A stretch of DNA of 64,000 bases. Source: Raja brachyura. Its lineage: Eukaryota. The stretch covers positions 57,226,001 to 57,290,000 of the forward strand of contig OY740793.1 in NCBI GenBank assembly GCA_963514005.1. The letters run 5' to 3'. Below, one piece after another: positions 7,508 through 57,414 of the stretch. Under the pieces are notes generated by a model, which saw only the letters and a program-made list of their open reading frames with translations, was not told the DNA's origin and did no database searches. The translations under genes and the position numbers were made by a program. Each line of letters starts with the position of its first letter. The stretch's first letter is position 1.

Positions 7508-8859
7508 CCGCCGCTAAGGTTATTTGAATCGTAAATTAATTGAAAGGTAACTTACAGTTGTACCTAACTGCAGCAAGACTAATGTATCAGTATCTAGTAC
7601 ACTCCGAATGTGATTTAATTTTCTTCCAAAGGTAAATTCTACACCCCCCCACACCCCAATTGAAAAGCTGAATGCACAACCCTTCTGCCAGAGACAAGCT
7701 GTTTACACTTTGTGTTGCAGACTTCACAGATCACAAGAATCTATTTCCCTGTGGACCATGGTGACCATACCAATATATGCAAAGACTAAAGCTGGTGAAG
7801 TGCGGTTGCACTTCTCAACCGCATTCACTTGTTGCATTCAATAAAGAAAGGGATGCCTTGCACATAAGGATTTGTAAAAATGAACATAAAAGGTAAAGAG
7901 ATGGGGAACCAAAACCATTAAGTTAAAATAAACTGGAGAGTTTCAAATATATGCAGTTAGCAGAAGATGGATAAGGTCATCTCTGGCACGGAACTGATAG
8001 ATACTGTATGGCAGCCACTCGTATTTGTGTATCAATAAAGATGGAGATTGCTCTATAACTTTGAATGAAACATACTTCTGTGTGCACTACAGATTGAGTA
8101 GATGAAGAAAATGTACCTTTTAGGAGAACTGTAATGTACATTAGTTGTAAGGGGAATTGAAAACAGCAAATGCAATGTTCATTGGCATGCAAGATGACAA
8201 TTAATTCACAAAGGACACTATGACTTGAAATAGAATAGAGCTGCTTGAAATGAAACTGCCCGGAATATTTGAAGTTTTAAAAGTCTATTTCAATAATTGA
8301 TCCCCTGAATAAAAGGAAGTAATTATTTATCCTATTTTTTGGGGGGGATTCAAAATCAAATAAAATAGTTACATTTGCAGAGGATTTAACATAATATTTT
8401 GCAGTAAAAAAGTAATCCAACAAAAAACATTAATATTCCTGGATTTATCAGTCATAGAATTTTTCAGCACGAGAAAAGATGCATCAAGTCCTCACCAGCC
8501 ATCAATAACCCCTTTGCATTAACCCTACACTAATCCCACTTTATTCTCCCCATTTTCCATCAACTCCTCCTAGATTTTTCCACTCACCTAGACACATTTA
8601 GGTTGAGCAAACAAAATCGTGTTGCTACTTCTGCCGCTGTTGTTTGTCGATACCTAGCAAGTTATAATAATTTTGCTGTAATTACAAGATGAGAAATCCT
8701 CACTCAAATTAAAATATTACTACAAAATTAATATGCTTGATCCTTCTTTCTTTCCCCAGTTGCTACTGTAGCATCTGCTTGTTTTTGTCTCTGGGGTTGA
8801 TACGGACTTTAGTTTTTGGTAAAGTACAATATAGCATTGAACATGGACTAATACTTCTC

Positions 8860-8950
8860 CTGAAGAAGGGTCTCGGCCCGAAACAGCACCCATTCCTTCT
8901 CTCCAGAAATGCTGCCTGTCCCGCTGAGTTACTCCAGCATTTTGTGTCTA
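8860..8950 (+). mobile_element. Short Penelope-derived terminal-repeat insertion with hammerhead-like core
   Basis: ctgaagaagggtctcggcccgaaac...cccgctgagttactccagcattttgtgtct. Direct repeat acttctcct at 8853-8861 and 8951-8959. Confidence 0.75.
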
Positions 8951-8998
8951 ACTTCTCCTTAATCCATTTATACTGTTCTGTTTGTGCTAAAATGTTAC

Positions 8999-9399: not shown

Positions 9400-10164
9400 T
9401 TTTTATTTTTAGTGAGTTAAAGTATTCTGTTTGGAGTCTATTCTTTTTTATGTGGGGGGTGGGGGGGGGGGGAAGGGGGAAACTGCTTTTCAGGGTCCCT
9501 ACCTGGTCGGAGAGGCAGCTTTTCTCCGGACTGCATCTTTGACTCGTCCTCGCGGCCTACCAGCGGGCCTGGAGCGGCGTTTCTTGAGGAGACCGGCCAG
9601 AACCTCGGCTTCGGCAGCGGCGCAGCCCTGGAGCACATTGTGGGGCGGAGCGGGCGATACCTTGCCTGGGTCGCCGCGCTGGAACTCCGGTGAGCTGAAA
9701 CCGCCAACAAAAAAAAAAACGGAGCGGAGCTGCGGGACTACGGAGCAGCCAGCTGCGGGCGGCGGCGCTGAACTTCAACATCGGGAGCCAGTGGGGGAGC
9801 TCCATTCATCGCGGCCTTGTTGACTTCGGAAGCTGCGGACTCCGGTAAGGAAGCGTCCGTTCCAGGTGTCCCAAGCCGCTGAGAGGATTCTCCCGACGCC
9901 GGAGCACCATCACCCGACGAGAACGGCCTGGAACATTGGTCCTCCTTGAAGGCGACTGCAGAGGCCTCAATAGGCCTGACTATGGGTGGACATGGGTTGG
10001 GGACTGGACATTGTGCCTTCCCTCATAATGGAAACCATTGTGGGGGGGATGTTTGTTGTGTTTAAAATCTCTCTATTATTGTTGTCTGTATTCTTTTTTT
10101 ATGTGCTGCATTGGCAAAAAACGTTTCACTACGCCAATTGGTGTACGTGACCAATAAATACCTT
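9400..10164 (+). mobile_element. GC-rich non-autonomous retroelement (copy A), nested in an older Penelope-derived remnant (9260-9400 and 10165-10215)
   Basis: Collinear with the reverse complement of 16911-17749 over ~750 bp. LINE-like 3' tail ttcactacgccaattggtgtacgtgaccaataaa. Confidence 0.8.
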
Positions 10165-11509: not shown

Positions 11510-12015
11510 ATAGACAACAGACAATAGGTGCAGGAGTAGGCCATTCGAGCCAGCACCGCCATTCAATGTGATCATGGCTGATCATCCCCAATCAGTACCC
11601 CATTCCTGCCTTCTCCCCATATCCCTGACTCTGCTATTTTTAAGAGCCCGACCTAGCTCTCTCTTGAAAGCATCCAGAGAACCTGCCTCCACCATCCTCT
11701 CAGGCAGAGAATTACACAGACTCACCACTCTCTGTGAGAAAAAGTGTTTCCTCGTCTCCGTTCTAAATGGCTTACTCCTTATATTTAAACTGTGACCCCT
11801 GGTTCTGGACACCTCCAACATCGGGAACATGTTTCCTGCCTCTAATGTGTCAAAACCCTTAACAATCTTATATGTTCCAATAAGATCCCCTCTCATCCTT
11901 CTAAACTCCAGAGTGTACAAGCCCAGCTGCTCCATTCTCTCAGCATATGACTGTCCTGCCATCCCGGGAATTAACCTTGTAAACCTACGCTGCACGCCCT
12001 CCATAGCAAGAATAG
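11510..12015 (-). mobile_element. CR1/HER1-type LINE 3' fragment
   Basis: ORF2 C-terminus EGVQRRFTRLIPG..LGLYTLEFRRMRGDLI.TYKI..SRTRGHSL..FFSQRVV..NSLP; tail ...ctactcctgcacctattgtct. Confidence 0.92.
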
Positions 12016-12292
12016 CAAAAAAAATGCAGATTCTTTTGATGGCAGAGGGAGCTAGATCAATGACGACTTCATTACTATCTGCAGCCTCTTGCAACACTGT
12101 GTGTTGGAATTACAGTAATGCAACTAAGTCGGGATACTTTCTACAGTGCATCTGAAGAAGTTTGTTAGAGTGTCCAGTATCATGCTCAATCACTTTAAAC
12201 TAGGAAAGTAGAGGCGTAGCATCCTTCTTCATGATTACATCCTTCTGCTGGGCCCAGGAAGATGTTAGCATCCAAGAATTTGAAGCCTATAA

Positions 12293-13809
12293 AGGGCCTG
12301 TCCCACTGTACGAAGTAATTCAAGAATTCTGCCGAGTTTCCCCTGATTCGAACTTGGAGAATTACTGTAATAGCCGCCCGTAGGTACTCGGGGCTCTCGC
12401 GGACATTTTTCAACACGTTGAAAAAACTTCACGAGCTTACCGCGTTTTCCGAGTACCTGCCGTTAGCATTAAGAGCCGCTAAGAGACATCCTGAGCTCCA
12501 ACATACCCGCTACGTACATTCTAGTTACTTACCACGGGTTCAATTTTTTTTTAACTTGGGAGAGCTCTTTTTTTTTTTGAACTCCACATTTATTGACATA
12601 ACAAAATACACATACAGGCAAAACAAAGGGACACACAAAAGACAATCACAAAATGACAAAATACAAATCACCTAACCTCTATTTACATCACATCGGATCC
12701 TCTTAACATTCTATCATCGAAGCATCTTATTCACAGGCACCATAGCAAGCTCATCCATTTATATCCTTAATCAATCTTGGCATTTGTAATAGTACCGGTT
12801 TCCATATAATATTAAAGGCATCGGTCCTCAACAGGAGTTTAGCAGTTATACTTTCCCTCCACTGTTGAACATTTGGTGGCATTTCCTTTCTCCATAGCAC
12901 TGTTATCATCTTTTTAGCAATCAACAGCATCACCCCAAGCAAATATTTCTGATTTTGAATATCTGTTGCTGCTGGAGTATCTCCTAATACAAAACCAGCC
13001 GGTTCCAAAGGTAGATCCACTCCCAGAATTAATTTAATCTCTACCTGGATGTCTCTCCAGTATTGGTACAATTTGGGACAATCCCAAAAAATATGTGTGT
13101 GATCACCAATCTTCCCACATTGTCTCCAGCATAAGTTTTAGGTGTTACTGTATCTTGCCAACACTAAAGGGGTCCTAAATACTCTAATTTTAATTTTCCA
13201 GTCAAATCCCTCCAAGAGGGGCTGCTTGTCAGCTTATGGCCCAGGAGACATGTCCTTTCCCATGTTTCATCTGGAATAATAATGTTCATTTCAAATTCCC
13301 ATTTCTGTTTTGTTTCTATAGTATTTCCTTTTATATAGTCTTGAAGTCCTTGATATAAATGGGATATCAAATTATTTTGCAACACTCCCTCTATAGTCAT
13401 CAAGAAAGTATTTTCCAAATTTGAAGATAGTCTACATATCTGCACCCAATCTCCATGTGTCTGTAAGTAGTGCCATATTTGGCGGAACCTGAAGAAATCC
13501 GACCCTGACAGCCCAAATTCAATCTGCAAGTGCTCGTAAGATTTCAAGACTCCCCCACAAAAAAGCTGGTCCACTGTAATAAGCCCTTTATCTGCCCAGT
13601 TCCTAAATCCTTTATCAATTTTGCTGGGTATAAAATTGGGACTAGCAGCTATCTTCATTGCTCTAGATATCGAATTAAAAACATTTAATTGCTTTCTTAT
13701 AGCTAACCACGTTTTCATCGTGAATTTAATCCAATCGTTATCTACTTTTAATTTCTTCCAATTTACTTGAGTTAGCTCTTGAGCAAACTAGTATAGTGGG
13801 ACAGGCCCT
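12293..13809. mobile_element. PIF/Harbinger-like MITE (15-bp TIR agggcctgtcccact, TAA TSD) interrupted by an L1 fragment
   Basis: taa|agggcctgtcccact at 12293 and agtgggacaggccct|taa at 13809. Confidence 0.85.
12570..13773 (-). mobile_element. L1/Tx1-clade LINE ORF2 3' fragment (frameshifted), with poly(A) tail
   Basis: ORFs 13164-13718 and 12751-13071 plus the zinc knuckle CWRQCGKIGDHTHIFWDCPKLYQYW. FFRFRQI, KQKWE..II.DETW and IAKKMI..W motifs. AATAAA and poly(A) near 12570-12595. Candidate TSD agctctt (12563-12569 / 13774-13780). Confidence 0.88.
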
Positions 13810-16679: not shown

Positions 16680-17878
16680 AGCATGAAGATAGACCTATCA
16701 GGTCCTGAGTCTACACCCACCACCTACCACCTACCTGTAATCCGAAATTAATCCCCCTTTTTTATATTTCCTAAATCTCAACTTCTTTCCCCATTATCTC
16801 CTTAGATTCTACCACATACTTGCACACCAGGGTAATATACAGTAGCCTACCGACATACATCTTTGGGATAGCGAAGGAAATTGGAGCACCGAGAGGAAAC
16901 TCATGTGATCAAGGTGCAAGGTTCAAGGTTCAAGGTTAGTTTATTTGTCACATACACCAATTGGTGTAGTGAAATGTTACTTGCCATGCAGCACATAAAA
17001 TAAAGAATACAGACATAACACTAATAAAGAGATTTAAACATAAAAAACATCCCCCCACAATGGTTCCCATTATGAGGGAAGGCACAATGTCCAGTCCCCA
17101 ACCCATGTCCACCCACAGTCGGGCCTATTGAGGCCTCCATAGTTGCCTTCACGGAGGCCCGATGTTCCAGGCCATTCTCGCCGGGTGATGATGCCCCGGC
17201 GTCGGGAGAATCCTCTCACCGGCTTGGGACACCCGGAACGGCCGCTTCCTACTGGAGTCCGCGGCTTCCGAAGCCGACAAGGCCGCGCTGAATGGAGCTC
17301 CCCCACTGGCTCCCAACGTTGAAGTTCAGCGCCGCCGCCCGCAGCCGGCCGCTCCACAGACCCGCAGCTCCGCGATGTTTATCTCGGCGGTCTTCAGCTC
17401 ACCGGAGCTCCAGCGCGGCGACCCAGGCAAGGCATCGCCCGCTCCGCCCCGCGATGGCGCTCCAGCCTCCGCCGCTGCCGAAGCCGAGGTACTGGGCAGT
17501 CCCCTCAGGAAACGGCATTCCAGGCACGCTGGTAGGCCGCAAGGACGGGTCGAAAGTGCAGCCCGGAGAAAAGCTGCCTCTCCGACCAGGTAGGGACCAG
17601 GAAAAGCAGTTTCCCCCTCCCCCCCCCCACCCCCCACATAAAAAAGAATAGGCTCCAAAACAAAACACTTTAACACACTAAAATAAAGAAAAGGGTGAAA
17701 AACATACAGCTGCAGGCTGGGCAGCCATACCATACAGGACGGCGCCCCCTAGCCAATCATACACTAACCAATCATAAGGAGAACTTGTAAACTCCACATG
17801 AACACCACAAAGGGTGAGATTGAACCCAGGTCCCTGGTGCTGTGAGGCTCTGACTGTACCACCTGTGCCACTGTGCCT
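16680..17878 (-). mobile_element. Old V-SINE split in two (16680-16910 and 17775-17878) by a GC-rich element
   Basis: ggaaattggagcaccgagaggaaactcatgtgatc...aggagaacttgtaaactccaca...gattgaacccaggtccctgg rejoin into the V-SINE consensus. Confidence 0.65.
16911..17749 (-). mobile_element. GC-rich non-autonomous retroelement (copy B, apparently full length)
   Basis: On -: starts gggggcgccgtcctgtatggtatggctgcc and ends gtatgtgacaaataaact(aaccttg)n. Homologous to 9400-10164. Confidence 0.8.
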
Positions 17879-18658: not shown

Positions 18659-18849
18659 AGGGGTTACACAAAAAGCTGGAGAAACTCAGCGGGTGCAGCA
18701 GCATCTAAGGACCGAAGGAGATAGGCGACTTTTCGGGTCGAGACCCTTCTTCGCCTATCTCCTTCGCTCCTTAGATGCTGCTGCACCCGCTGAGTTTCTC
18801 CAGCTTTTTGTGTAACCCTCGATTCTCCAGCATCTGCAGTTCCTTCTTT
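18659..18849. mobile_element. Palindromic Penelope-derived insertion with 17-bp TSD
   Basis: Arms gggttacacaaaaagctggagaaactcagcgggtgcagcagcatctaagga and its reverse complement. Perfect TSD aacaaggagtagaaatg at 18642-18658 and 18850-18866. Confidence 0.85.
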
Positions 18850-19387
18850 AACAAGGAGTAGAAATGGTTGGGAAACTTGAATTGGTGAAACAAGTAAACA
18901 AACAGTGCCATGCACATCTTATTGCAATAATTGAAGTGATTATTTGCTATCGGATAATGAGAAAGTTCTGCAACTAGTTGGACCTGTCATTTCACACCGT
19001 TCAAAGGAATCAAACTTGAAAGTGTGGCCTCAGGGCATTTCACCTCCCAACTCACACCTCAAGTCTTCACCACATCAAAGTCTCACATCCATAGTTATGC
19101 CTGGCTCAAAATGCCACTTATCTAAGAAGCCGATCAAATAGCCATCTGACTAAATATTGATAGATCAACGTTTCAAACATTCATAAAACAGAAAAGTAAC
19201 AAGCAGAAATTGAAGGTATTTGATTAGTTTGTGGTATCTACTAAGCCAGTATACACTACAAAATACTCAACTCATTTATTTATATTGATCCTATCCAAAA
19301 CACGGTGTATGGATTGAACTTCTTATAAATTACAAATCTCTGGTCAAGGCTATAGTACAACTGGAGGTGGAGAACAAGGTGGTAGTG

Positions 19388-19597
19388 GACAATAGGTGTA
19401 GGAGCAGGCCATTTGGCCCTTCGAGCCAATACCGCCATTCAATGTCATCATGGCTGATCATCCCCAATCAGTAACCCGTTCCTCCTTCTCCCCATATCCC
19501 CTGACTCCGCTATTCTTAAGAGCCCTATCTAGCTCTCTCTTGAAAGCATCCAGAGAACCTGCCTCCACCGCCCTCTGAGGCAGAGAATTCCACAGAC
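19388..19597 (-). mobile_element. CR1-type LINE 3' tail
   Basis: LWNSLPQRAVEAGSLDAFKRELDRALKNSGVRGYGEK; closely similar to 11520-11720. Confidence 0.88.
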
Positions 19598-19987
19598 AGT
19601 GGACCATATTGGTGAAACTGTAAGTAATTCTTGGAGATTTGCAGGAGAACAAATAAGTATTCCATCCATTATTAATAACTTTTCCGCCTCCCTTCCAACT
19701 CAATTCCATCCTGTACAGAAAATCTTCCCAGCACACTGAAAAGCAAATCTTTGCACTGTCCTGGGGCAAAAGTAATGTAAATTGCATCATGGGAGTTAAT
19801 ACAACTCCTGTGGTTATAACTTCCTTGTTGAACATTGTTCTCCAGTATTTTCTGATCCATTGGGTGCCAAGGGTTATGAGGAGAAAGACTCAATGGGCCG
19901 ACTGGACTCAATGCTCCTATGTCTTATGAACATACGCTTTTTCAATGCTGAAAAGATTTGTATTTATTTTCCATCTCTGGCTACCAT

Positions 19988-20115
19988 CTGAAGAAGGGTC
20001 GTGGCCCGAAATGTCACCTATTCCTTCGCTCCATAGATGCTGCCTCACCCGTTGAGTTTCCCCAGCATTTTTATCTACCTTCGCTTGTTCCAGCATCTGC
20101 AGTTCCTTCTGGAAC
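19988..20115 (+). mobile_element. Penelope-derived terminal repeat with hammerhead-like core
   Basis: ctgaaga-agggtcgtggccc-gaaatgtc followed by the family tail ...ccagcatctgcagttcct. Confidence 0.75.
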
Positions 20116-22197: not shown

Positions 22198-22308
22198 ATG
22201 CAGGAAGAAACTGCAGATGCTGGTTTAAACTGAAGATAGACACAAAATGCTGGAGTAACTCAGCAGGACAGGCAGCATCTATGGAGAGAAAGAATGTGTG
22301 ACGTTTTT
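22198..22308 (-). mobile_element. Penelope-derived terminal repeat fragment
   Basis: ctgcagatgctggtttaaactgaagatagacacaaaatgctggagtaactcagcaggacaggcagcatct. Confidence 0.75.
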
Positions 22309-22334
22309 GGAATTTGGAATTTTATGTATGGTAT

Positions 22335-28758: not shown

Positions 28759-29798
28759 GTGTCATTCTCATCTGTCATTCCTAACGTGCCAGCTCCACAT
28801 GTCATTCCTATTGCCCCTGAGCCAGCAGTCCAGTCTACTTCCTACTTGTGGTGGGCTGGTGTAGATAGAAGCTGGCCCCAGTGCCGCACACAGACACGTT
28901 ATTGGCATATTCTCTACAGCAAAGATCCAACTATCCATCAACTGCATGCCCACGGTGGTTCTAACTATTTAGCAGTCATGGACCAAGCAAGAGTAGTTGA
29001 ATTTGGCCTGCAGGGTCTTCAGGAGAGGATGTTCATGTGGCACTGAGTGCATATACAAAACTGTTGTTTATGCTGAATTTCTGGTTCTTTTTGCAGAAGG
29101 AGTTACTGAGAGGGCTACCGACATGATGACTGTGTCCCTGTTGTGATTATGGTCTTTATTAATTAGCACTGGTTGACATTGTGTGTTGCAATGATATCAA
29201 TAGTATGGGTTTTGTTCACCAAGTATCTTGAGCAGCTTCTTTCAAGACTACTGAAGTATTTTGCTAAGGAAACAAGGACATTTGATGTCACTGGCTCAGC
29301 TCCCAAATTAGGGTTCAAGAGGAGTGTGAATACAGGAAATGAGGACCTTCCAGGGATCTAAACACCCAGCCTACAGCTGCCACAGTCTTTATATGTGGAG
29401 CAGGTTGAGGGTTTACCCTGATGATGGGCTGAAGGCTTTTCCTAGTTCCTAGAAACTAGGGAAAGTTAATAATACCAGAATCTCTGCTGCTATCATCTAG
29501 AATTATGTGGATCCTTGTTGGTGGTTTTGTCCCATTTCAGAGAGGCAAATAGAATGTTTCACTCCATCTGATTGGGGCTACTCTCACTGCAGCAAGTTCA
29601 CAGGTTTTGTCAACACTTTACATTTAGCAGATTTTCCAGCATCCTAGATTTAAGTCCCAGAGATGGAGTGACAGCTTTGCAAGATAAGCGGCTCACAGCA
29701 TCACTGATGTGTTGGCAGGCTCCGACATATTGGTGGGGTTTTTTAAGTTTATTGCCAGGTTGACATTACTCCATGATCAAAATTGATCTCTGCCATGT

Positions 29799-29931
29799 CT
29801 GAAGAAGGTCCTGACCCAAAATGTCGCCTATCCATTTTCTCCAGAGATGCTGCATGACCCGCTGAGTTACTCCAGCATTTTGTGTTTATCTTTAATATAA
29901 AACGAGCATCTGCAGTTCCTTTTTATTACAT
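29799..29931 (+). mobile_element. Penelope-derived terminal repeat with 16-bp TSD
   Basis: Starts at ctgaagaagg. Direct repeat ttga(t/c)ctctgccatgt at 29783-29798 and 29932-29947. Confidence 0.8.
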
Positions 29932-34052: not shown

Positions 34053-34547
34053 GCTGAACTGCACCACCAGAATCAGAAACAGCTTCTTCCCCTCAGTTAT
34101 CTGGCTTCTGCACAGTCCCATTGTGGACAATGAACTTTTCTATGGAACTGATGCGATACAATACTGAGAACCGTATTGTGCATTCTGTGTCTTCCCCTTT
34201 GCTCTATCTATTGTACTTGAGTTTGACTTAATTGTATTTATATATAGTACTAGACTAAGTGTGACCCATTGGGTCCCAGCATCACACAGGAGGGCTGATC
34301 CCCCAACGCAATATTCCACCTCTCCACCAATTCCAATATTGGTGGCCAGTGGGGGGGGGGGGGGGCTTTCTGGAGCGCTAGTATGGGTGCTGTGGGCTGA
34401 AGGGACTCGTTTCCAGAGGGCTAGTATAGACATTGTAGGCTGAATGGATTCTTCGACTGGCGGCTCAGTCACTCAAGCTTGTTCTGGCAGCTCACTCACT
34501 CACGGCTGGTGGGCTGGGAGTTGACTCATGGCTATTCCTTGAAATTC

Positions 34548-34717
34548 CATTTCAAGCAGGGTGCAAGGCCACCAAATTCAAGTGCAGTTTCTTACCACTT
34601 CAAGCAGGGTGCAAGGCCACCAAATCCAAGTGCAGTTTCATACCACTTCAAGCAGGGTGCAAGGCCACCAAATTCAAGGGCAGTTTCATACCATTTCAAG
34701 CAGGGTGAAAGGCCACT
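34548..34717. repeat. 48-bp tandem repeat, ~3.5 copies
   Basis: Unit ttcaagcagggtgcaaggccaccaaattcaagtgcagtttcataccac. Confidence 0.95.
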
Positions 34718-35048
34718 AAAGACAGCGAGTCAAACCTCTCCCTCCTCCATCTTGCAGGAACTGACCCTCGTCCACACCTCTGGGTTTCATAGTAGTCCTT
34801 CCCCTCCTCCCACCAGAGGGGGCGTGGCCTTCATGGCATGATTGACAGGAGAGAGAATCTCAACATTTTTTACCCACTAATAATTCTTTTATTTTTCATC
34901 AATGGAAAAAATTCTCGGCACCTGATGAGCAGAGAGGGACTCTGAGTAAGATGGCCAAAAATCACAGTGATACGTGGTAGCGTTTTTTCTAAAATCAATT
35001 TAAAGCCCAACCAGGCAGTGGTCAAGATTAGACTTTTAATTATATAGA

Positions 35049-35245
35049 AGGCAAGGCAACTTTAATTAGGCAAGGCAACTTTAATTAGGCAAGGCAACTT
35101 TAATTAGGCAAGGCAAATTTAATTAGGCAACACAGCTTTAGCATTTCCAAACCAAAGGCAACACAGCTTTAGCATTTCCAAACCAAAGGCAACACAGCTT
35201 TAGCATTTCCAAACCAAATCAACACACTTCAGCATTTCCAAACTA
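35049..35245. repeat. Adjacent 19-bp (x4) and 31-bp (x3-4) tandem repeats
   Basis: Units aggcaaggcaactttaatt and aggcaacacagctttagcatttccaaaccaa. Confidence 0.95.
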
Positions 35246-37140: not shown

Positions 37141-38749
37141 ACATAGACTCATATTGCGTAATATTTTGTTTGAGAGCCGGCTTGACTGGGAACTGACCAG
37201 TAACAGCCAGAACGATAACTATGCAAACTTATGGACCGTCATAAATAAAAATTTTAAAACATCTAGGAACCATTTGATCTCTTCAGCCTGAATACATCCA
37301 AAACCTACAGCTATAAATTAGACAGGAATTATCGTATTGTCCAGGAAAGATGTTCCAATCAGCCAATGATATGGATTAAGGTCATCTGTTAATGTTTAGA
37401 TGATCTGGCACATTTAGTTCTTTGAATATGAAATTTATGATGCTGAAATGCAGCGTCAAGCTTTTTCATTGATCCCTTATGACCATTTTATGAATTGAAT
37501 CACAGTTATTGGGATAAATTCTGGAGTAAGGAATCCATACCATATCACTCAGTTTAAGTAATTCCACAGTTGCTTCCAATTCTCCCCACACGAAAATGCA
37601 TGTTATACATTTTAGGACCCCTCTTAGCTTAATTAAAACCATTCCGTTCATATAACGTAATCATTTCCATTTCCAAAAATAAATGCAATTTTGTTTCGAC
37701 CAAGAAAAAAGAAAAGTTTGGCAAAGCAGGGAGCAAATCTGAATCTGACACCACCTCCAAGCAATGTAGATGAAGGTGTTAGTTTGGCTTTGTGCTTGGG
37801 AAGACTGGCTAGTTAGTTATATGCATGTGTAATTGGTTAGTATTTAATTATTTAATATCACCTTTTCCATTTGATGTAGCATTTAGCTGGTCACCTTCCT
37901 CAAAAACAAAGACATGAAATTTCTAATTGTTTTTATTTGGTATAAATTCCAGCTCCAAACACTATCCCTATGCTTGTGGGATATTCTATTTGTCCATTAG
38001 CAAGTTAAATATTTAGATCCTGATATTACATTTCATTCTGGTTCAGTCTTGTTTGCAAATTCAGAATAATATAATCTGATGGTATTTTTCAATTTCCCTG
38101 TAAAAATGCTAAATGCATTTTAGTTATGTTTTGTCAATACAGCTAGTGCTGTTTGGTGGTTGTGTGCCTTGTTCAATGTTCAGAAACATTAACTAATTTC
38201 TACAGTGAATGTGAACACAAACCAAGAAAGACCATCAATTATAATATTAGCAAGTTATTCAGAGAAAATTGCTCGAAACAATCAAACCAAACAAAGCAAT
38301 CTTGGCTGAAGCTAAAAATTAAAATGACTTGAATGATATATCTGATTCATGTTAAGTGCACAAGAAATCCAGCTCTCTCACTCTTCCTGGACCCTCAATT
38401 GTCCGGAGTTAACGTATTGAAGTCTGGCTTTGAATGTTGCAAATACACAGATTTCAAGAAAGAAGAAAACTCCCATTAGGTGATGGTGGAAATGCTGTGT
38501 ACAATCAAATAAACTAAACATGCTAATTACAAAGGTACGGCTCTTAAAATTATTTGGCAAGTTGTGTGCATGTGCATATTCAAATATGCAAACTAGAGAA
38601 ATGTTATCCCCAGGCATGTAGCCAAAGGTTGACTGGAATGAGTCAAATGTTTCTTGTACTTAACATTGTACTGGACTGGGGTGAAGTGTGAGATGGAATT
38701 ATGGTTGATTAGCTAATATGTTCTCTGCAACAAACCAATGAGAAATAGG

Positions 38750-38966
38750 AGGAGATAGACACAAAAAGCTGGAGTAACTCAGCGGGACAGGCAGCATCTC
38801 TGGGGAGAATGAATGGGTGACGTTTCGGGTTGAGACCATTCTTCCGATGTCTCGACCCAAAACATCACCCATCCTTCTCTCTAGAGATGCTACCTGCCCC
38901 GCTCAGTTACTCCAGCTTTTTATGTCCATTTTTGTTTTAAACCAGCATCTGCAGTTACTTTCTACA
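38750..38966. mobile_element. Palindromic Penelope-derived insertion with 14-bp degenerate TSD
   Basis: Inverted arms around a central gagaccattcttccgatgtctcgaccc. TSD caatgagaaatagg (38736-38749) vs caatgagagatcgg (38967-38980). Confidence 0.82.
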
Positions 38967-41900: not shown

Positions 41901-42149
41901 ACAACCATAGACGTGGTCTACATGGACTTCAGCAAAGGTATTTGATAGGATTCCGCATGGTATGCTGCTCTGGAATGTTAAATCGAATGGGATCCAGGGT
42001 GAGCTAGTCAATTGGATAGTGAATGGAGTTCAAGGGTAAAGATGAAAGGTTGTTTTTCAGATTGGAGGCCTATGTGGTTTGCCATAGGGATTGATGCTGG
42101 GCCCAATGTTGTGTGTGGTTTATATCAATGATTTGGTTTAAATGTAGAA

Positions 42150-42545
42150 TGTTCACGCGAAGTTCGCGCTAAGTTCGCGCGTGACATCATTTACGTCATG
42201 CTTACCAATCAGCTGGGCAGGAGGCAGGGCCGACTGAATTTGGGCGTCATCACGCAACGTCACGCGCTAGGCGTATGCCGTCAAGACGTTGCGTATGCCG
42301 TCAAGATGATGCGTACAATGTCAAGATGCTGCATACGACCGCAATGCGCCTGCGTGCCAACAGGCCGTTGCCGCACGAAGATTTCGGTCACTGCAAGAAT
42401 TTTGGAGCCCCGCGCGATGTCGGGACCAACCCCGCACAACTCTAAATGGGACTGGCCCCGCGCGGCCATACGGTGCCCGTACACCTCAAGCGACCACGAG
42501 GCCACGTAATTTGCGAGCCAAGGTCGCGTAAGTGGGACAGGCCCT
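42150..42545. mobile_element. Harbinger-like MITE, one TIR only (left end lost), CpG-rich
   Basis: Ends agtgggacaggccct|tag immediately before the CR1 FADD codons. Same TIR as 12293-13809 and 46440-47202. Confidence 0.72.
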
Positions 42546-42953
42546 TAGGTTTGCAGATGACACAAAAGTGGGTAGCATCGTAGCTAGCCAAGATGGTTAT
42601 CAAAAGTTACAGCAGGTCCTTGATCAGTTGGGCAAGTGGGCTGAGGAAACGTTAATTGAGTTTAATGCATTTTTAGAAGCCAGGGCAGGACCTTCACAGT
42701 GAATGGCAGGGACCCGGAGAGTGTTGTAGAGCAGAGGCTTCTAGGGGTCCAAGTTCATAGTTCCCTGAAAGTGTTGTCGCAAGTAGACTGGTGGTCACGA
42801 AGGCTTTTGGTACACTGGCCTTCATCAGTCAAGGTATTAATTATAAAAATTGGGATGTAATGTTACAGTTAAACAATATGTGGGTGGGCTGGATTTAGAG
42901 TATTGCATTCAGTTTTTATCACCCTCCTATAGAAGGATGTTGTTACGTTGGAA

Positions 42954-43800
42954 GGTAGACCAAAATGCTGGAGAAACTCAGCGGGTGAGGCAACATCTAT
43001 GGAGCGAAGGAAATAGGCAACAGTTCGGGTCGAGACCATTCTTCAGACTGATGTGAGGGTGGGGGGGAGCGGGAAGAAGAAAGGAAGAGGTGGGGACAGT
43101 GGGCTGAGGGAGAGCTGAGAAGGGGAGAAGAAAGTAGGGACTACCTGAAATTAGAGGTCATTGTTCATACCGCTGGGGTGCAAACTGCCCAAGGGAAATA
43201 TGAGGTGCTGCTCCTCCAATTTACGGTGGTCCTCACTCTGGCTATGGAGGAGGCCCAGGACAGAAAGGTCGGATTTGGAATGGGAGGGGGAGTTGAAGTG
43301 CTGAGCCACCGGATCATCAGGTTGGTTAGTGCTAACCGAGCGGAGGTGTTGGGTGAAGCGATCGCCAAGCCTACGCTTGGTATCACCGATGTAGAGCAGC
43401 TGACATCTAGAGCAGTGGATGCAATAGATGAGGTTGGAGGAGGTGCAGGGAACATCTGCCGCACCTGGAAAGACTGCTTGGGTCCTTGAATGGAGCCAAG
43501 GGGGGAAATAAAGCGACAAGTGTAGCATTTCCTGCGGTTGCAAGGGAGTGCCAGGAGAAGGGGTGGTTTGGGTGGGAAGGGACGCATTGACCAGGGAGTT
43601 ACGGAGGGAGCGGTCTCTGTGGAGAGCAGACAGCGGTGGAAATGGGAAGATGTGGCCAGTGGTTGGATCACGTTGGAGGTGCCGAAAATGTCGGAAGATT
43701 ATTTGTTGTATGTGACGGCTGGTGGGGTGGAAGGTGAGGACAAGGGGGACTCTGCCCTTGTTATGAGTGGGGGCATGGGGAGTGAGAGCAGAATCACGGG
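42954..43800 (-). mobile_element. Penelope-like element (Neptune-type) 3' portion: Cys linker + GIY-YIG endonuclease + terminal repeat
   Basis: PCNRRKCYTC linker, then (frameshift) CTSSNLIYCIHCSRCQLLYIGDTKRRLGDRFTQH...VAQHFN..H...RKLEEQHLIF.LGSLHPSGMN. The 3' repeat matches the dispersed palindromic family. Confidence 0.92.
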
Positions 43801-43814
43801 AAAATTAAGTTGGA

Positions 43815-43938
43815 AAGTCTCTCCAATCTTTGCACATCCCCAATCCTTTCACTCGTCACTTTAATTTCATGTTTCATTCACTTTGTGCTTTTATGACAGT
43901 TGGCAGATCAATTTCCCGCCTGGGATAAATAAAGTTCT
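43815..43938 (+). mobile_element. Rex/Babar-like LINE 3' tail with (TATCG)-like end
   Basis: Reverse-complement match to 15305-15445. Confidence 0.7.
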
Positions 43939-49224: not shown

Positions 49225-49935
49225 TACCAGAAACTGCAAAAGCTGGAATCTTGACCAAAAAACGAATGCTCTGGAACCTAACAGGTCAGGCAGCTTCAGT
49301 GGAGGAAATGGACAGATGATATCTGCAGAAAGACCCCAACATGAAACGTCATTTGTCGATTCCCTCCACAGATGCTGCCTGACCCGTTTGAGTTCTTCTA
49401 TCACATTGTTTTTAACTCATGCCAACCTTTCTATCGTTGGCCTCCAGAATTCCTAGATTGAGCAAACTGGAAGAACAACACCTCATATTCTGCTTGGGTC
49501 TATTACAGCCCAGCAGCATGAACATGGAATTCTCCAATTACAAATAATACCCACCTCCCCCCCCCCCTCTTCCCCCAGTCTCCAACACTCCAATGCTCAC
49601 CTCCCATCCCTAAGTCCCATATTGTCCATTTATCACCTCTCTTACCCCGCTTCCCATTCCATTACATCCATATCCCTCCCAACGGTTTTGCATTTCACTC
49701 ATCTTCTTTCCTTTTGACATACTTTTTGTCTCTATTTCACCTCGGCCCTTTGTCATTTACTCCACCCATCTTCCAATCACCCCCCACCCTGGTCACCATC
49801 TATATCAACCTTCTACTTGCCAGGCTTTGCCCAACCCCCATTTTTTCCAGCTTTTTCTCCTCTACTGCATCAGTCTGAAGAATGGTCCTGACCCAAAACG
49901 ATGTTTACCCGTTACCTCCACTATGTTAAATGTTA
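49225..49935 (+). mobile_element. Penelope-like element remnant with inverted 5' repeat, GIY-YIG C-terminus and 3' repeat
   Basis: KLEEQHLIFCLGLLQPSSMNMEFSNY at ~49465-49545, C-rich UTR, cagtctgaagaatggtcctgacccaaaacg at ~49871. Confidence 0.78.
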
Positions 49936-50220: not shown

Positions 50221-50234
50221 TACCTCTGTATCAA

Positions 50235-50472
50235 GGTGCAAAGGAAATAGGCGGCGTTTCGGGTCGAGACCCTTCTTCAGAAGAAGGGCTGCTGGCCTTC
50301 TGAAGATGTCTGAAGAAAGGTCTCGATCCGAAACGTCAGAGTCTGAAGAAGGGTCTCGACCCAAAATGTCACCTATTTCCTTCGCTCCATAGATGCTGCC
50401 TCACCCGCTGAGTTTCTCCAGCAATTTTGTCTACCTTCGATTTTCCAGTATCTGCAGTTCCTTGTTAAACAA
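50235..50472. mobile_element. Penelope-derived insertion with three hammerhead-like cores and 14-bp TSD
   Basis: Perfect TSD tacctctgtatcaa at 50221-50234 and 50473-50486. Cores at 50253-50280 (-), 50310-50337 (+), 50343-50370 (+). Confidence 0.85.
50310..50337 (+). ncRNA. Minimal type I hammerhead-ribozyme-like motif (best preserved core)
   Basis: CTGAAGA-aaggtctcgatcc-GAAAC-GTC: CUGANGA and GAAA boxes, short stem II, palindromic ACGT stem III, GUC triplet. Stem I is weak and activity is not shown. Confidence 0.55.
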
Positions 50473-51150: not shown

Positions 51151-52353
51151 ATAAACGAGTTCGGTATTCCGACTGCGCATGCCCAGGTCATAGGTCACTT
51201 GCGTTGTGTGCAAGCCTGTGTTTCGTCCATGGACAGGGGAGGGACTGGGTCTCTGGCGCTGCGAGCGCTGTTGAGTTGCTGCTGGGCCGTTCCCGTCTCC
51301 TCCTGGGAGTCCTGTCCCTGTCCGGGGGTGTCCTGGGCTGGTGGGGCGATGGTGGCTCCGGCTCCCGGGGAGTCCGTTCCCCGGCGGGCCGTGGACCGTC
51401 GGCTGCGCCTCTCGCCTTGTCCAGTGGCTGTCAGTTGGCCCCCTCATTGCTGGCGGGGGCCGAGCGCCGGTCATCGGCGGGGATGCACACGGTGTGATAC
51501 GGTGGCTCGGCGGTTCAGCCAACATCTCTGGAGAAGGGTCTCGACCCGAAACGTCACCCATTCCTTTTCTCCGGGGATGCTACCTGACCCGCTGAGTTGC
51601 TGCAGCATTTTGTGTGTGTCCTCGTTGATGGCTAGTGCTTGGCTTTCGCCAGTGCCGGAGGTTTGGCGGGCGGCCACTGGTTGGGGCGGGGTTGTGGCTG
51701 GCGGACCCTGGCCCATCGTGGAGTGGGTTCCTCGGGAGTTGGAGCGGGGTTGGCCTGGAGTTGCCGCTTCTTCTCCTCGCTGGCGATGGGCATGTGGGCC
51801 GCTGCTCATCCGGGCCATTGTCTCATTGGTCCGGGTCTGTTGGGCGGCCCGGCAGGACAGGCGGAGTTGAGCTGGGGTTGGCGCTTCTCCGTGCTGGCTG
51901 TGGGCCTGGGGGCACTGCTCCGGGCTGGTGTCCCGTCGGTCCGGACAGCTCTGGCCACCCCATGGGCGAGGATGGGACACTCGCGGGGGGGAGGTACCAG
52001 GACAGTCCAGTGGCGGTTCGGCAGCGCTTGTGGCGCCGGGGACACGAGTTCGATACTGGCTTCGGATGAGGCACTGTGTGCATGCAGCTGCCGAGAATGT
52101 CTCTCCGCCGGTCACAGTCGTGCCCCCCCCCACCCGTCTCCCATTCGCATCTGCCCCCTCTATCTCGCTGTTACACCCCACTCTCCCGCTACCTGACACC
52201 CCCGTTTCTCAGATTAAGTATATTTTTAATATAAATCATGAATAAAGATAAGAATTTATACAGTCAACGCTTCGTTCACTTGTTCTTTATAGCAAGTGAC
52301 CTTTGAAAAATCCCATGATTCCTTGCGTTTTTCGGAATACCGAACTCGCTTAT
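51151..52353. mobile_element. Unclassified GC-rich non-autonomous DNA element with 22-bp TIRs
   Basis: ataaacgagttcggtattccga (51151-51172) vs tcggaataccgaactcgcttat (52332-52353), 21/22 complementary. Contains a Penelope repeat fragment at ~51520-51620. Confidence 0.75.
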
Positions 52354-55700: not shown

Positions 55701-57162
55701 CCCATTTCTATTGTTATCTCTACCCATATAAATTATATGTTCAGTCCCTTGAAATTTCTCTTAGATAATCCAACCCACTGTTCTTTTTTAATTTCACCTC
55801 CTCACAGCTGGTAATGTAGAAGCATAAGGCTCCATGTCCTTAAAGTTATTTACCTCTTAGATTCCTCCAGCTTCTATCAGCGATCATTTGGGGTTAATTT
55901 TGAACTAACATTAAATTAAGGAAGACATTTTTTTCTATCTACCTTTCTGACAGACCAGCCATCTATTGCACTTACTCTTAACCTGGTTTGCTCAGTTTTC
56001 TTTCTGTATTTCTTACATCAACGGTGCCTCAGCTAAGCATATGCTTTAAAATTCCTAAAAATATAGCAAACTAACTTTAACAATGCATGTGCAGTCATCT
56101 TCTGGTGATTCATTTCCCCACTATGTCCTCCCATTCCAATATCATAAAATTCATATAAAATAACAATGTAACCTTCAAACCTTTTGTAATCTGCACCTAT
56201 ATTTCAAAATTACACGAGTACAAGCTGTCCAACAGGAAGCTAAGGAAGTGAGCAATCATGTTAGTTGACCGAGAAATAGCAACATGTCCTGGAGCATTCA
56301 GCCAAATAGACAGGTTGCAACTGTACAATCAAAATTCAGCTCATTCAAAGCCAGCATTTTGGAGAGGCCGAAACCATTAATATTAAGCTCAATTATAACA
56401 TTAAAATGCATTATGTCACACTGATCATTTTAATCATGACCGTGAATTAGCTTTAAAAAATTCAAATTTGTATAAATTCTTCATGTTGATCAACATACAT
56501 GACTTTTGTCGAGAGAGTGAGAAAAAATAGTAAATGAGGAAATTAGTTTTTAAGTGCCTCAGGCTCCAGGTTGTTTCTCACAGTGGCAAGATGACATAAC
56601 CAAACCATATTAGAACTATGGGCACAGGAACTTAGACAGGGCCAATGTTAGAACAAAGAAAATACAGATGACTGTACACATAACCAAAATTAATATAGAT
56701 TTTCAATATTAAGTGATTGGTATAATTGGTGCTTACTCTGCAGTTTCTGTAGAAATCTTTATATAAATGTCTCTTCAAATGCTAGTGTGGAGGAGTGCAG
56801 CCCCAATTACAACTGTTTGACTTATGGTCTCAATGATATGGGAAATTTTTGAAATTGTGTATAATGTTTTTGATAGATTTATGCTTTTTAACATGACTTA
56901 TTTTTTCCTGTCAATCTACTGAACATTAAATAGCTAATTTTAAGCTTTGAAGCATTTACATCATTTGTATCTATTCCATATCTCTTTTGCCATGGGTTCA
57001 ACATATGTATATTATACGTGCAAGATAGTCTAGCTACCCCAAAAAAAGCGATTAAAGGTGATTCAAGGTGATTAAAACCATCCTGGAGTGCGATTCTTGT
57101 TGAAATTTAGCAGACATTTTTTCTATCTTCATTGTCGTAGGGTTGGCCAACATTAAAGTATA

Positions 57163-57414
57163 GATAGACACAAAAAGCTGGAGTAACTCAGCGGGTCAGA
57201 CAGCATGTCTGGAGAAAAGAAATCGGTGCCGTTTCTGGTTGAGACCCTTCTTCAGACTGAGAGTCCTTTCCCCCCGACTCAGTCTGAAGAAGGGGCTCGA
57301 CCCAAAACATCATCTATTCCATTTCTCCAGAGATCCTGTCTGACCCGCTGAGTTACTCCAGCTTTTTGTGTCTATCTTCGGTTTTTAACCAGCATCTGTA
57401 ATTCCTTCCTACAT
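57163..57414. mobile_element. Palindromic Penelope-derived insertion ~175 nt from a DACH2 donor site
   Basis: ~100-bp inverted arms (57163-57262 / 57277-57377). Degenerate TSD attaaagtatagat / actaaagcatagat. Confidence 0.85.

Follow-up and report, generated by a model that had tools for sequence, protein, structure and literature searches.

A dead Neptune-type Penelope-like insertion in Raja brachyura and the probable origin of the short hammerhead repeats related to it

Penelope-like elements (PLEs) carry minimal type I hammerheads in their terminal repeats (pLTRs), a point that an earlier note on this DNA had taken as established and that is borne out by the accessible text of Cervera and De la Pena (2014, PMC4209133). 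According to the portions of the literature at hand, a CX2-5CxxC linker between the reverse transcriptase (RT) and the endonuclease (EN) marks the Neptune or Nematis clade (PMC8557442), Neptune and Poseidon are the only PLEs reported in vertebrates (Li et al. 2026, bioRxiv 10.64898/2026.07.22.740005), and the promoter of D. virilis Penelope sits in the pLTR (PMC2377424). Work on PAc, a Poseidon element of the green anole, has shown that the tail is set by two internal sites of RT initiation, that both target strands undergo cutting and extension, and that mutation of the hammerhead does not prevent insertion in vitro (Frangieh et al. 2024, PMC11167929, as far as its accessible text goes).

We analysed a 64-kb stretch of Raja brachyura DNA (the window), in which a PLE remnant at 42954-43804 is accompanied by numerous short repeats resembling its end. 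The reading that we favour, and consider likely, is that 42954-43804 is a dead Neptune-type PLE insertion and that the short repeats are pLTR end pieces, made as run-off copies of the 5' end of uncut RNA.

The insertion at 42954-43804 and its element family

The minus strand of 42954-43804 holds a single 5'-truncated, frameshifted Neptune-type Penelope-like insertion of 851 bp, in which the C-terminal 216 codons of a PLE ORF, spread over two frames, are followed by about 100 nt of pyrimidine-rich UTR and by a 96-nt terminal repeat. Its features are as follows.

42943..42953: target-site duplication, left copy, 11 bp, with one mismatch to the right copy; it lies in a LINE fragment that we take to be CR1-like
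42954..43049, minus strand: pLTR core, ending at the short 3' end without tail
43019..43046, minus strand: core of the minimal type I hammerhead, with C3 at 43046 and the cut predicted to follow 43019; it is broken at 10.1, 15.1, 15.2 and 17
43050..43150, minus strand: pyrimidine-rich 3' UTR, subfamily-specific
43151..43804, minus strand: C-terminal remnant of the PLE ORF (end of the thumb region, linker, GIY-YIG endonuclease), frameshifted and without RT domain
43337..43432, minus strand: GIY-YIG catalytic motif region, amino acids 125-156 of frame 43804
43516..43542, minus strand: C-x4-C-x2-C Zn-finger-like linker, Neptune/Nematis type
43805..43815: target-site duplication, right copy

The earlier note had described a GIY-YIG remnant with a Cys-rich linker followed by a terminal repeat, and this description proved accurate. 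Frame 43804-43151 matched Pfam PF01541 (GIY-YIG) with E=0.0019, below the curated cut-off, and its 216 aa aligned at 68.5% with the C-terminal end of an ORF that is intact elsewhere in the genome; the linker (43542-43516) sits in the second frame, so that the remnant is frameshifted, and the repeat follows after the UTR. Since the 11-bp duplication flanks the insert, all 851 bp were inserted together, and a reverse transcriptase was lacking from the outset. From the 5' ends of related copies, we infer that 43048/43049 corresponds to the first base of the element RNA.

These findings do not agree with the view that this copy is 'autonomous' or the 'parent' of the window repeats: it was inserted without RT, its frame is shifted, its hammerhead core is broken, and only two other copies in the window, at 19986 and 50338, share its subfamily. 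Judged by its sequence, the insertion is a dead sibling of the window repeats, not their parent.

When the endonuclease piece was used to search the 2.7-Gb genome, 111,997 candidates were obtained, and the 150 that were scored showed 78-90% identity (the 42954 copy itself excepted). Walking upstream revealed a young sister subfamily, whose DNA was 83-84% identical to that of the 42954 copy over the endonuclease region. Among 20 loci taken (18 for their long frames and two for a tandem array), 17 contained uninterrupted M-to-stop ORFs of 1191-1238 aa, the elements being 95.6-99.9% identical in DNA and arranged as pLTR-ORF-pLTR or in tandem. All 17 ORFs comprised RT motifs, a C-x4-C-x2-C linker (at residue 1059 of the intact ORF) and GIY-YIG. 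Pfam RVT_1 and GIY-YIG both matched the family ORF below cut-off (atlas matches, 0.98), and a PDB sequence search with the RT-EN part gave 0 matches. The family thus has the single ORF with RT and C-terminal GIY-YIG of an EN+ PLE, of which the 42954 copy keeps only the C-terminal 216 aa, and also the partially tandem pLTRs, the optional 30-40 bp tail and the inverted copies of such elements. The linker and GIY-YIG support the Neptune-type assignment made in the earlier note, with the clade assigned by motifs rather than by a tree. As the linker is shared with Nematis, we favour Neptune because vertebrates are reported to have Neptune and Poseidon only.

A subfamily split of 533 pLTR copies gave 213 young copies, 56 of the subfamily of the 42954 copy and 119 old ones, 145 being left without assignment; mean divergence was 1.6%, 7.5% and 10.4%, respectively. 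Endonuclease-linked copies amounted to 70/172, 29/38 and 8/78 in the same order, for loci that had partly been chosen for the presence of the endonuclease.

Several other observations were made on elements of this family. A head-to-tail array (G000:C18:46359500-46379300) contains at least 4 whole elements with a period of 3,965 bp and frameshifted ORFs. PLEs are known to keep introns; in one intact young element (L080:1885-1900) the first ATG of the ORF lies within a donor-like AAG/GTATG. At one locus (L106) and in contig joints, units made of a pLTR and the initial ~100-170 nt of the ORF were joined to a new copy with the same 5' edge, and such joined units are a possible route to retrozyme-like tandems.

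The surroundings of the insertion are repetitive. A GC-rich repeat at 42130-42548, within the CR1-like fragment, adjoins the PLE insertion, and pieces of it recur in sampled loci at 74-91%; one of its ends resembles, we presume, the terminal repeat of a non-autonomous DNA transposon, the other end not being evident. Another GC-rich repeat of ~600 bp is present as two inverted copies, 85-92% alike (9444-10047 and 17051-17648), and tandem repeats with periods of 48 bp and 19 bp occupy 34544-34768 and 35030-35143. Frames 11582-12109, 13164-13787 and 19458-19889 resemble C-terminal regions of LINEs (CR1-like, L1-like). None of eight window frames matched Pfam, and no host exon was recognised within the window. 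In sampled loci, we take a minus-strand frame of 308 aa beside a cluster of PLE copies (L020) to be a NACHT/LRR-like host frame and L035:712-1920 to be a DIRS-like RT frame.

Terminal repeats in the window and their hammerhead motif

The terminal repeat gave 22 blastn matches in the window at E<=0.05, and 24 pieces after merging the results of six seeds. The earlier note had counted more than twelve occurrences and named ten coordinates, and a copy is indeed present at each of these ten.

8858..8966, plus strand: solo pLTR, old subfamily
18661..18853: young-subfamily head-to-head pair, short arm and tailed arm, with a 17-bp target duplication
19986..20111, plus strand: solo pLTR with tail, subfamily of the 42954 copy
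22199..22310, minus strand: pLTR piece with tail, most of the hammerhead missing
29795..29921, plus strand: solo pLTR with tail, old subfamily, with a 16-bp duplication (one mismatch)
38745..38966: old-subfamily head-to-head pair, with an 11-bp duplication (one mismatch)
49868..49899, plus strand: short fragment of the hammerhead region
50233..50472: a single insert combining an inverted arm, a repeat of the initial ~30 nt and a tailed arm, with a 14-bp target duplication
51506..51624, plus strand: pLTR copy with a short inverted piece on its 5' side
57162..57410: old-subfamily head-to-head pair, no duplication found

At least three subfamilies are represented among these repeats, and all of them include members linked to an endonuclease. 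The main arm of the insert at 50233..50472 is of the same subfamily as the 42954 copy, and the tailed arm of the pair at 18661..18853 begins at the predicted cut site (2-nt microhomology).

The pLTR consensus fits the succession CUGANGA, 1-nt bulge, 4-bp stem II, GAAA, 2-nt palindrome and UH, and so agrees with the definition of a minimal type I hammerhead given in the accessible text of PMC4209133, with a helix I of 2 bp and a helix III consisting of the 2-nt palindrome. The proposal that the repeat fits the hammerhead core thus holds at the level of the consensus, in all three subfamily consensuses. A strict minimal-hammerhead descriptor was passed by one window copy only (19988), against a chance expectation of 0.04 (max 1) in 100 first-order Markov sequences; the 42954 copy deviates from the consensus at 10.1, 15.1, 15.2 and 17. 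In the genomic loci examined the descriptor matched 278 times, overlaps kept, and among the matches listed all were variants of one pLTR motif. The conserved core, the G10.1-C11.1 stem II and the palindromic 15.2-16.2 were intact in 137/172 young copies, 16/38 copies of the subfamily of the 42954 copy and 18/78 old copies.

Two checks that the earlier note had suggested did not bring further support. An Rfam scan of the window returned no hammerhead at E<=1, and four Rfam matches on the 18.7-kb pair were rejected as hairpin look-alikes. Stem covariation across copies was not found either, with 0/6 pairs changed on both sides in 16 aligned copies, a comparison that has no power because the master elements are invariant. 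In folding predictions, the hammerhead was not the best fold for the monomer or for longer RNA (z 0.5, -1.7, 0.5, 0.1), stems I+II of the monomer amounting to -4.2 kcal/mol vs -5.3 kcal/mol for its best fold. We consider the motif likely to be a weak ribozyme, dependent on a dimer or on a protein.

Among 275 copies spanning the hammerhead, core losses fell mostly at CpG sites, as neutral decay predicts. The three subfamily consensuses are identical over core and stem II and differ downstream (0/28 vs 11/59 hand-picked columns, p=0.014). Sequence comparison therefore suggests, indirectly, that selection likely maintains the hammerhead in master elements and that the copies carry it as a passenger, keeping in mind that a promoter or a protein site would give equal conservation of this segment.

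Ends of the short copies and their probable origin

Exact counts in the genome amounted to 33,400 for the 3' 39-mer of the young subfamily and to 30,305 for a 35-mer that spans the complete core. In 8,497 of these 30,305, the match to the young element extends upstream by 14 bp; this proportion overstates the upstream drop because other subfamilies share the core. In the numbering used for the ends, C3 is at -55 and the cut at -27. Among 87 copies picked by the 3' anchor, 48 had their 5' end at -50..-60 and 26 beyond -62, the latter scattered over 1.5 kb. In a wider young set, drawn like the former mostly from the first 5 Mb of one contig and including partner arms of loci chosen by their 5' start, 73 out of 128 ends fell inside the 11-nt window (-50..-60) at the 5' edge of the hammerhead. 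The 3' ends were bimodal, lying 0-3 or 30-38 nt past the anchor in 84/87 copies, which corresponds to sites about 35 nt apart and recalls the two sites of RT initiation described in PMC11167929, and many copies were flanked by target duplications of 8-18 bp. The short copies are therefore not random truncations: they have fixed 5' and 3' ends.

We considered the possibility that self-cleavage of the hammerhead makes the short templates. The intact core of 137/172 young copies would allow it, and two arms, one of them within the window, start at the cut site. Yet, only 3/128 5' ends were found at -29..-26, which is no excess over neighbouring positions (p=0.34), and this rules out a pile-up at the cut site as the main route to short copies. 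Furthermore, insertion of the anole element in vitro is unaffected by hammerhead mutations in the accessible account (PMC11167929). We regard this explanation as highly improbable.

The bases that precede the 5' edge are also informative. There were 13,798 copies starting at G(-57); in the first 100, A being excluded, the preceding base was G in 58, T in 36 and C in 6, a G excess with p=1.6e-5 vs a background of 36-37%. In clean duplication-flanked copies with 1-7 extra bases, the extra sequence ended in G in 9/9 cases, 21/30 loci having been dropped (no or short duplication, inversion, long extras). An extra G has been ascribed to cap copying in full-length L1 (PMC11702581, accessible text). 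Before A(-58), a hand count of the first 100 copies gave 43 A, 37 G and 20 T; because these bases are rich in A, untemplated purine addition rather than a cap may explain part of the G excess.

These ends would be accounted for if transcription of the element started 2-3 nt before CUGANGA and if RT primed at two internal sites of the RNA, one per nicked target strand. Priming in the first pLTR would then lead, by run-off, to short copies of ~95-135 nt, and priming in the downstream pLTR to long, randomly truncated copies such as 42954-43804; two cDNAs meeting by microhomology would give head-to-head pairs. The templates would be uncut RNA.

The 5' boundary also resembles a splice acceptor (pyrimidine tract plus CAG) and a quasi-palindrome, which weighs against the run-off reading. 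The 5' pile-up could accordingly reflect a 3' splice site, or stalling or template switching of RT on a longer RNA, at the quasi-palindrome that precedes the core. The pyrimidine tract and CAG precede the core in three subfamilies, the intron of D. virilis Penelope ends at helix I of the hammerhead (PMC4209133, accessible text), and the donor-like AAG/GTATG overlaps the start codon. However, duplication-flanked copies have 0-7 extra bases and no upstream exon, and many copies begin at -57/-58, whereas a spliced exon would begin further downstream, at -56. Nor does the donor-like site form any of the joints listed for contig assemblies; the 24 public runs listed were all contigs, most of doubtful RNA status, and the four used here revealed no splice, and no RNA start or cut either. 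We therefore think a splice or stall quite improbable as the source of the pile-up.

In 33 out of 38 head-to-head pairs examined, one arm was tailed and the other untailed; the remaining five were old copies, in which the tail aligns poorly to the young reference. All 26 young pairs (one of them a tandem duplicate) combined a long-tail with a short-tail arm, and a target duplication surrounded 27/38 pairs. In the window, pairs of this kind lie at 18661, 38745, 50233 and 57162. The commonest junction was shared by seven pairs, the 31 others having other junctions. When pairs with the commonest junction were oriented alike, its central base was T in 3 and A in 3 of 6 independent pairs, which fits fresh annealing of two cDNA ends, not one spreading hairpin.

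These results bear on another explanation, namely that the short copies form a separate non-autonomous SINE- or retrozyme-like family, in which pLTRs, as solo copies or hairpins, produce transcripts of their own that the PLE protein mobilises in trans. Their fixed 5' and 3' ends, their own target duplications, their large excess over ORF-bearing copies and the junction common to 7/38 pairs are all compatible with this, and non-LTR retrozymes have been proposed, in the accessible preprint text, to derive from pLTRs (10.64898/2026.07.22.740005). Against it, the commonest junction has either central base, most pairs have other junctions, and the window is without tandem monomer array. In the 533 copies compared, short and long ones also have their subfamily-diagnostic bases in common, and the short copies have both 3' ends and the target-duplication size of ORF-bearing copies, and each subfamily has endonuclease-linked members; this fits by-products of the autonomous RNA. 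Moreover, a solo copy starting at -58 would represent the same RNA as the 5' end of the element, so that no separate master is needed. A separate family thus appears unlikely. From the earlier proposal that the dispersed repeats are non-autonomous derivatives, descent from the element family of the 42954 copy stands; the separate family fares less well, its features being shared with ORF-bearing copies.

The run-off reading has weaknesses of its own: similar copies would be expected from a SINE-like master, or from a short transcript made by Pol II, provided that the ends were the same; the hammerhead fold shows no covariation, and the best predicted fold of the monomer differs from it. In a broader and more tentative form, for which the case falls just short of even, PLEs would insert by two-site, two-strand priming, with one RT copying from the far site of the RNA on one nicked strand and a second from the near site on the other; both cDNAs could run off a capped start, which in this family would coincide with helix I of the hammerhead. 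In that case, self-cleavage within the initial 30 nt would decap the mRNA and switch it off, and tens of thousands of such insertion reactions would be recorded across the genome by the short copies.

Comparison with known systems

The insertion at 42954-43804 is in itself an ordinary object: it is a dead remnant, its element class is known and its ribozyme motif has been published. With the metazoan pLTR hammerheads (PMC4209133, accessible text), the Raja motif shares a helix III reduced to a 2-nt palindrome, a bulge before stem II and G10.1-C11.1, together with the location in the pLTR of fish Neptune, the thousands of solo motifs ascribed to truncated PLEs and the close opposite-strand pairs. 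In contrast with those highly variable hammerheads, the Raja motif is nearly invariant within the genome, with a helix I of 2 bp and a stem II of 4 bp; in the accessible text, neither a fixed 5' start for solo copies nor any cartilaginous fish is mentioned.

The family resembles Neptune-clade EN+ PLEs (Craig et al. 2021, PMC8557442; Arkhipova et al. 2013, PMC3846280; accessible parts) by its RT, CX2-5CxxC linker and C-terminal GIY-YIG, and also by partial tandems, an inverted 5'-truncated copy, a 30-40 bp tail at one end and target duplications. It differs from them in that Raja inserts often consist of just two pLTR arms, with the long/short rule observed in 26/26 young pairs. Head-to-head palindromes were explained in PMC3846280 by self-priming on an antisense template, whereas the Raja data fit two-strand priming on sense RNA.

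Non-LTR retrozymes, which the accessible preprint text (10.64898/2026.07.22.740005) reports in the one cartilaginous fish sampled, are likewise pLTR-related, hammerhead-bearing and non-coding. They consist of tandem units, each with a full hammerhead, whereas the window copies are solo or head-to-head and mostly decayed; tandem units with a complete hammerhead were not found within the 64-kb window, where a 30-nt stutter occurs at 50306.

The accessible texts already describe solo minimal hammerheads left by truncated PLEs, pairs on opposite strands, inverted copies of the pLTR and the one-sided tail, and the family may be listed in the supplements of PMC4209133 or 10.64898/2026.07.22.740005. 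A fixed RNA start of solo pLTRs and the long/short pair rule were not found in the literature accessible to us, Repbase/Dfam and subscription papers lying outside its scope, which does not imply absence from print.

The value of the locus is indirect, in that PLE integration and the role of the hammerhead are open questions (PMC11167929, accessible text). Near-identical intact elements and more than 30,000 young copies lead to predictions, i.e. an RNA start at the hammerhead, an uncut template and one priming site per strand. PAc agrees with the Raja reading in that its two internal RT start sites, which set the tail, lie downstream of the hammerhead, in that both strands are used, and in that insertion does not require cleavage (PMC11167929, same text). 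PAc belongs to the Poseidon clade and has its start codon inside the hammerhead, whereas the first ATG of the Raja element is ~140 nt downstream of the cut site; and the Raja copies suggest that the RNA begins at the hammerhead motif.
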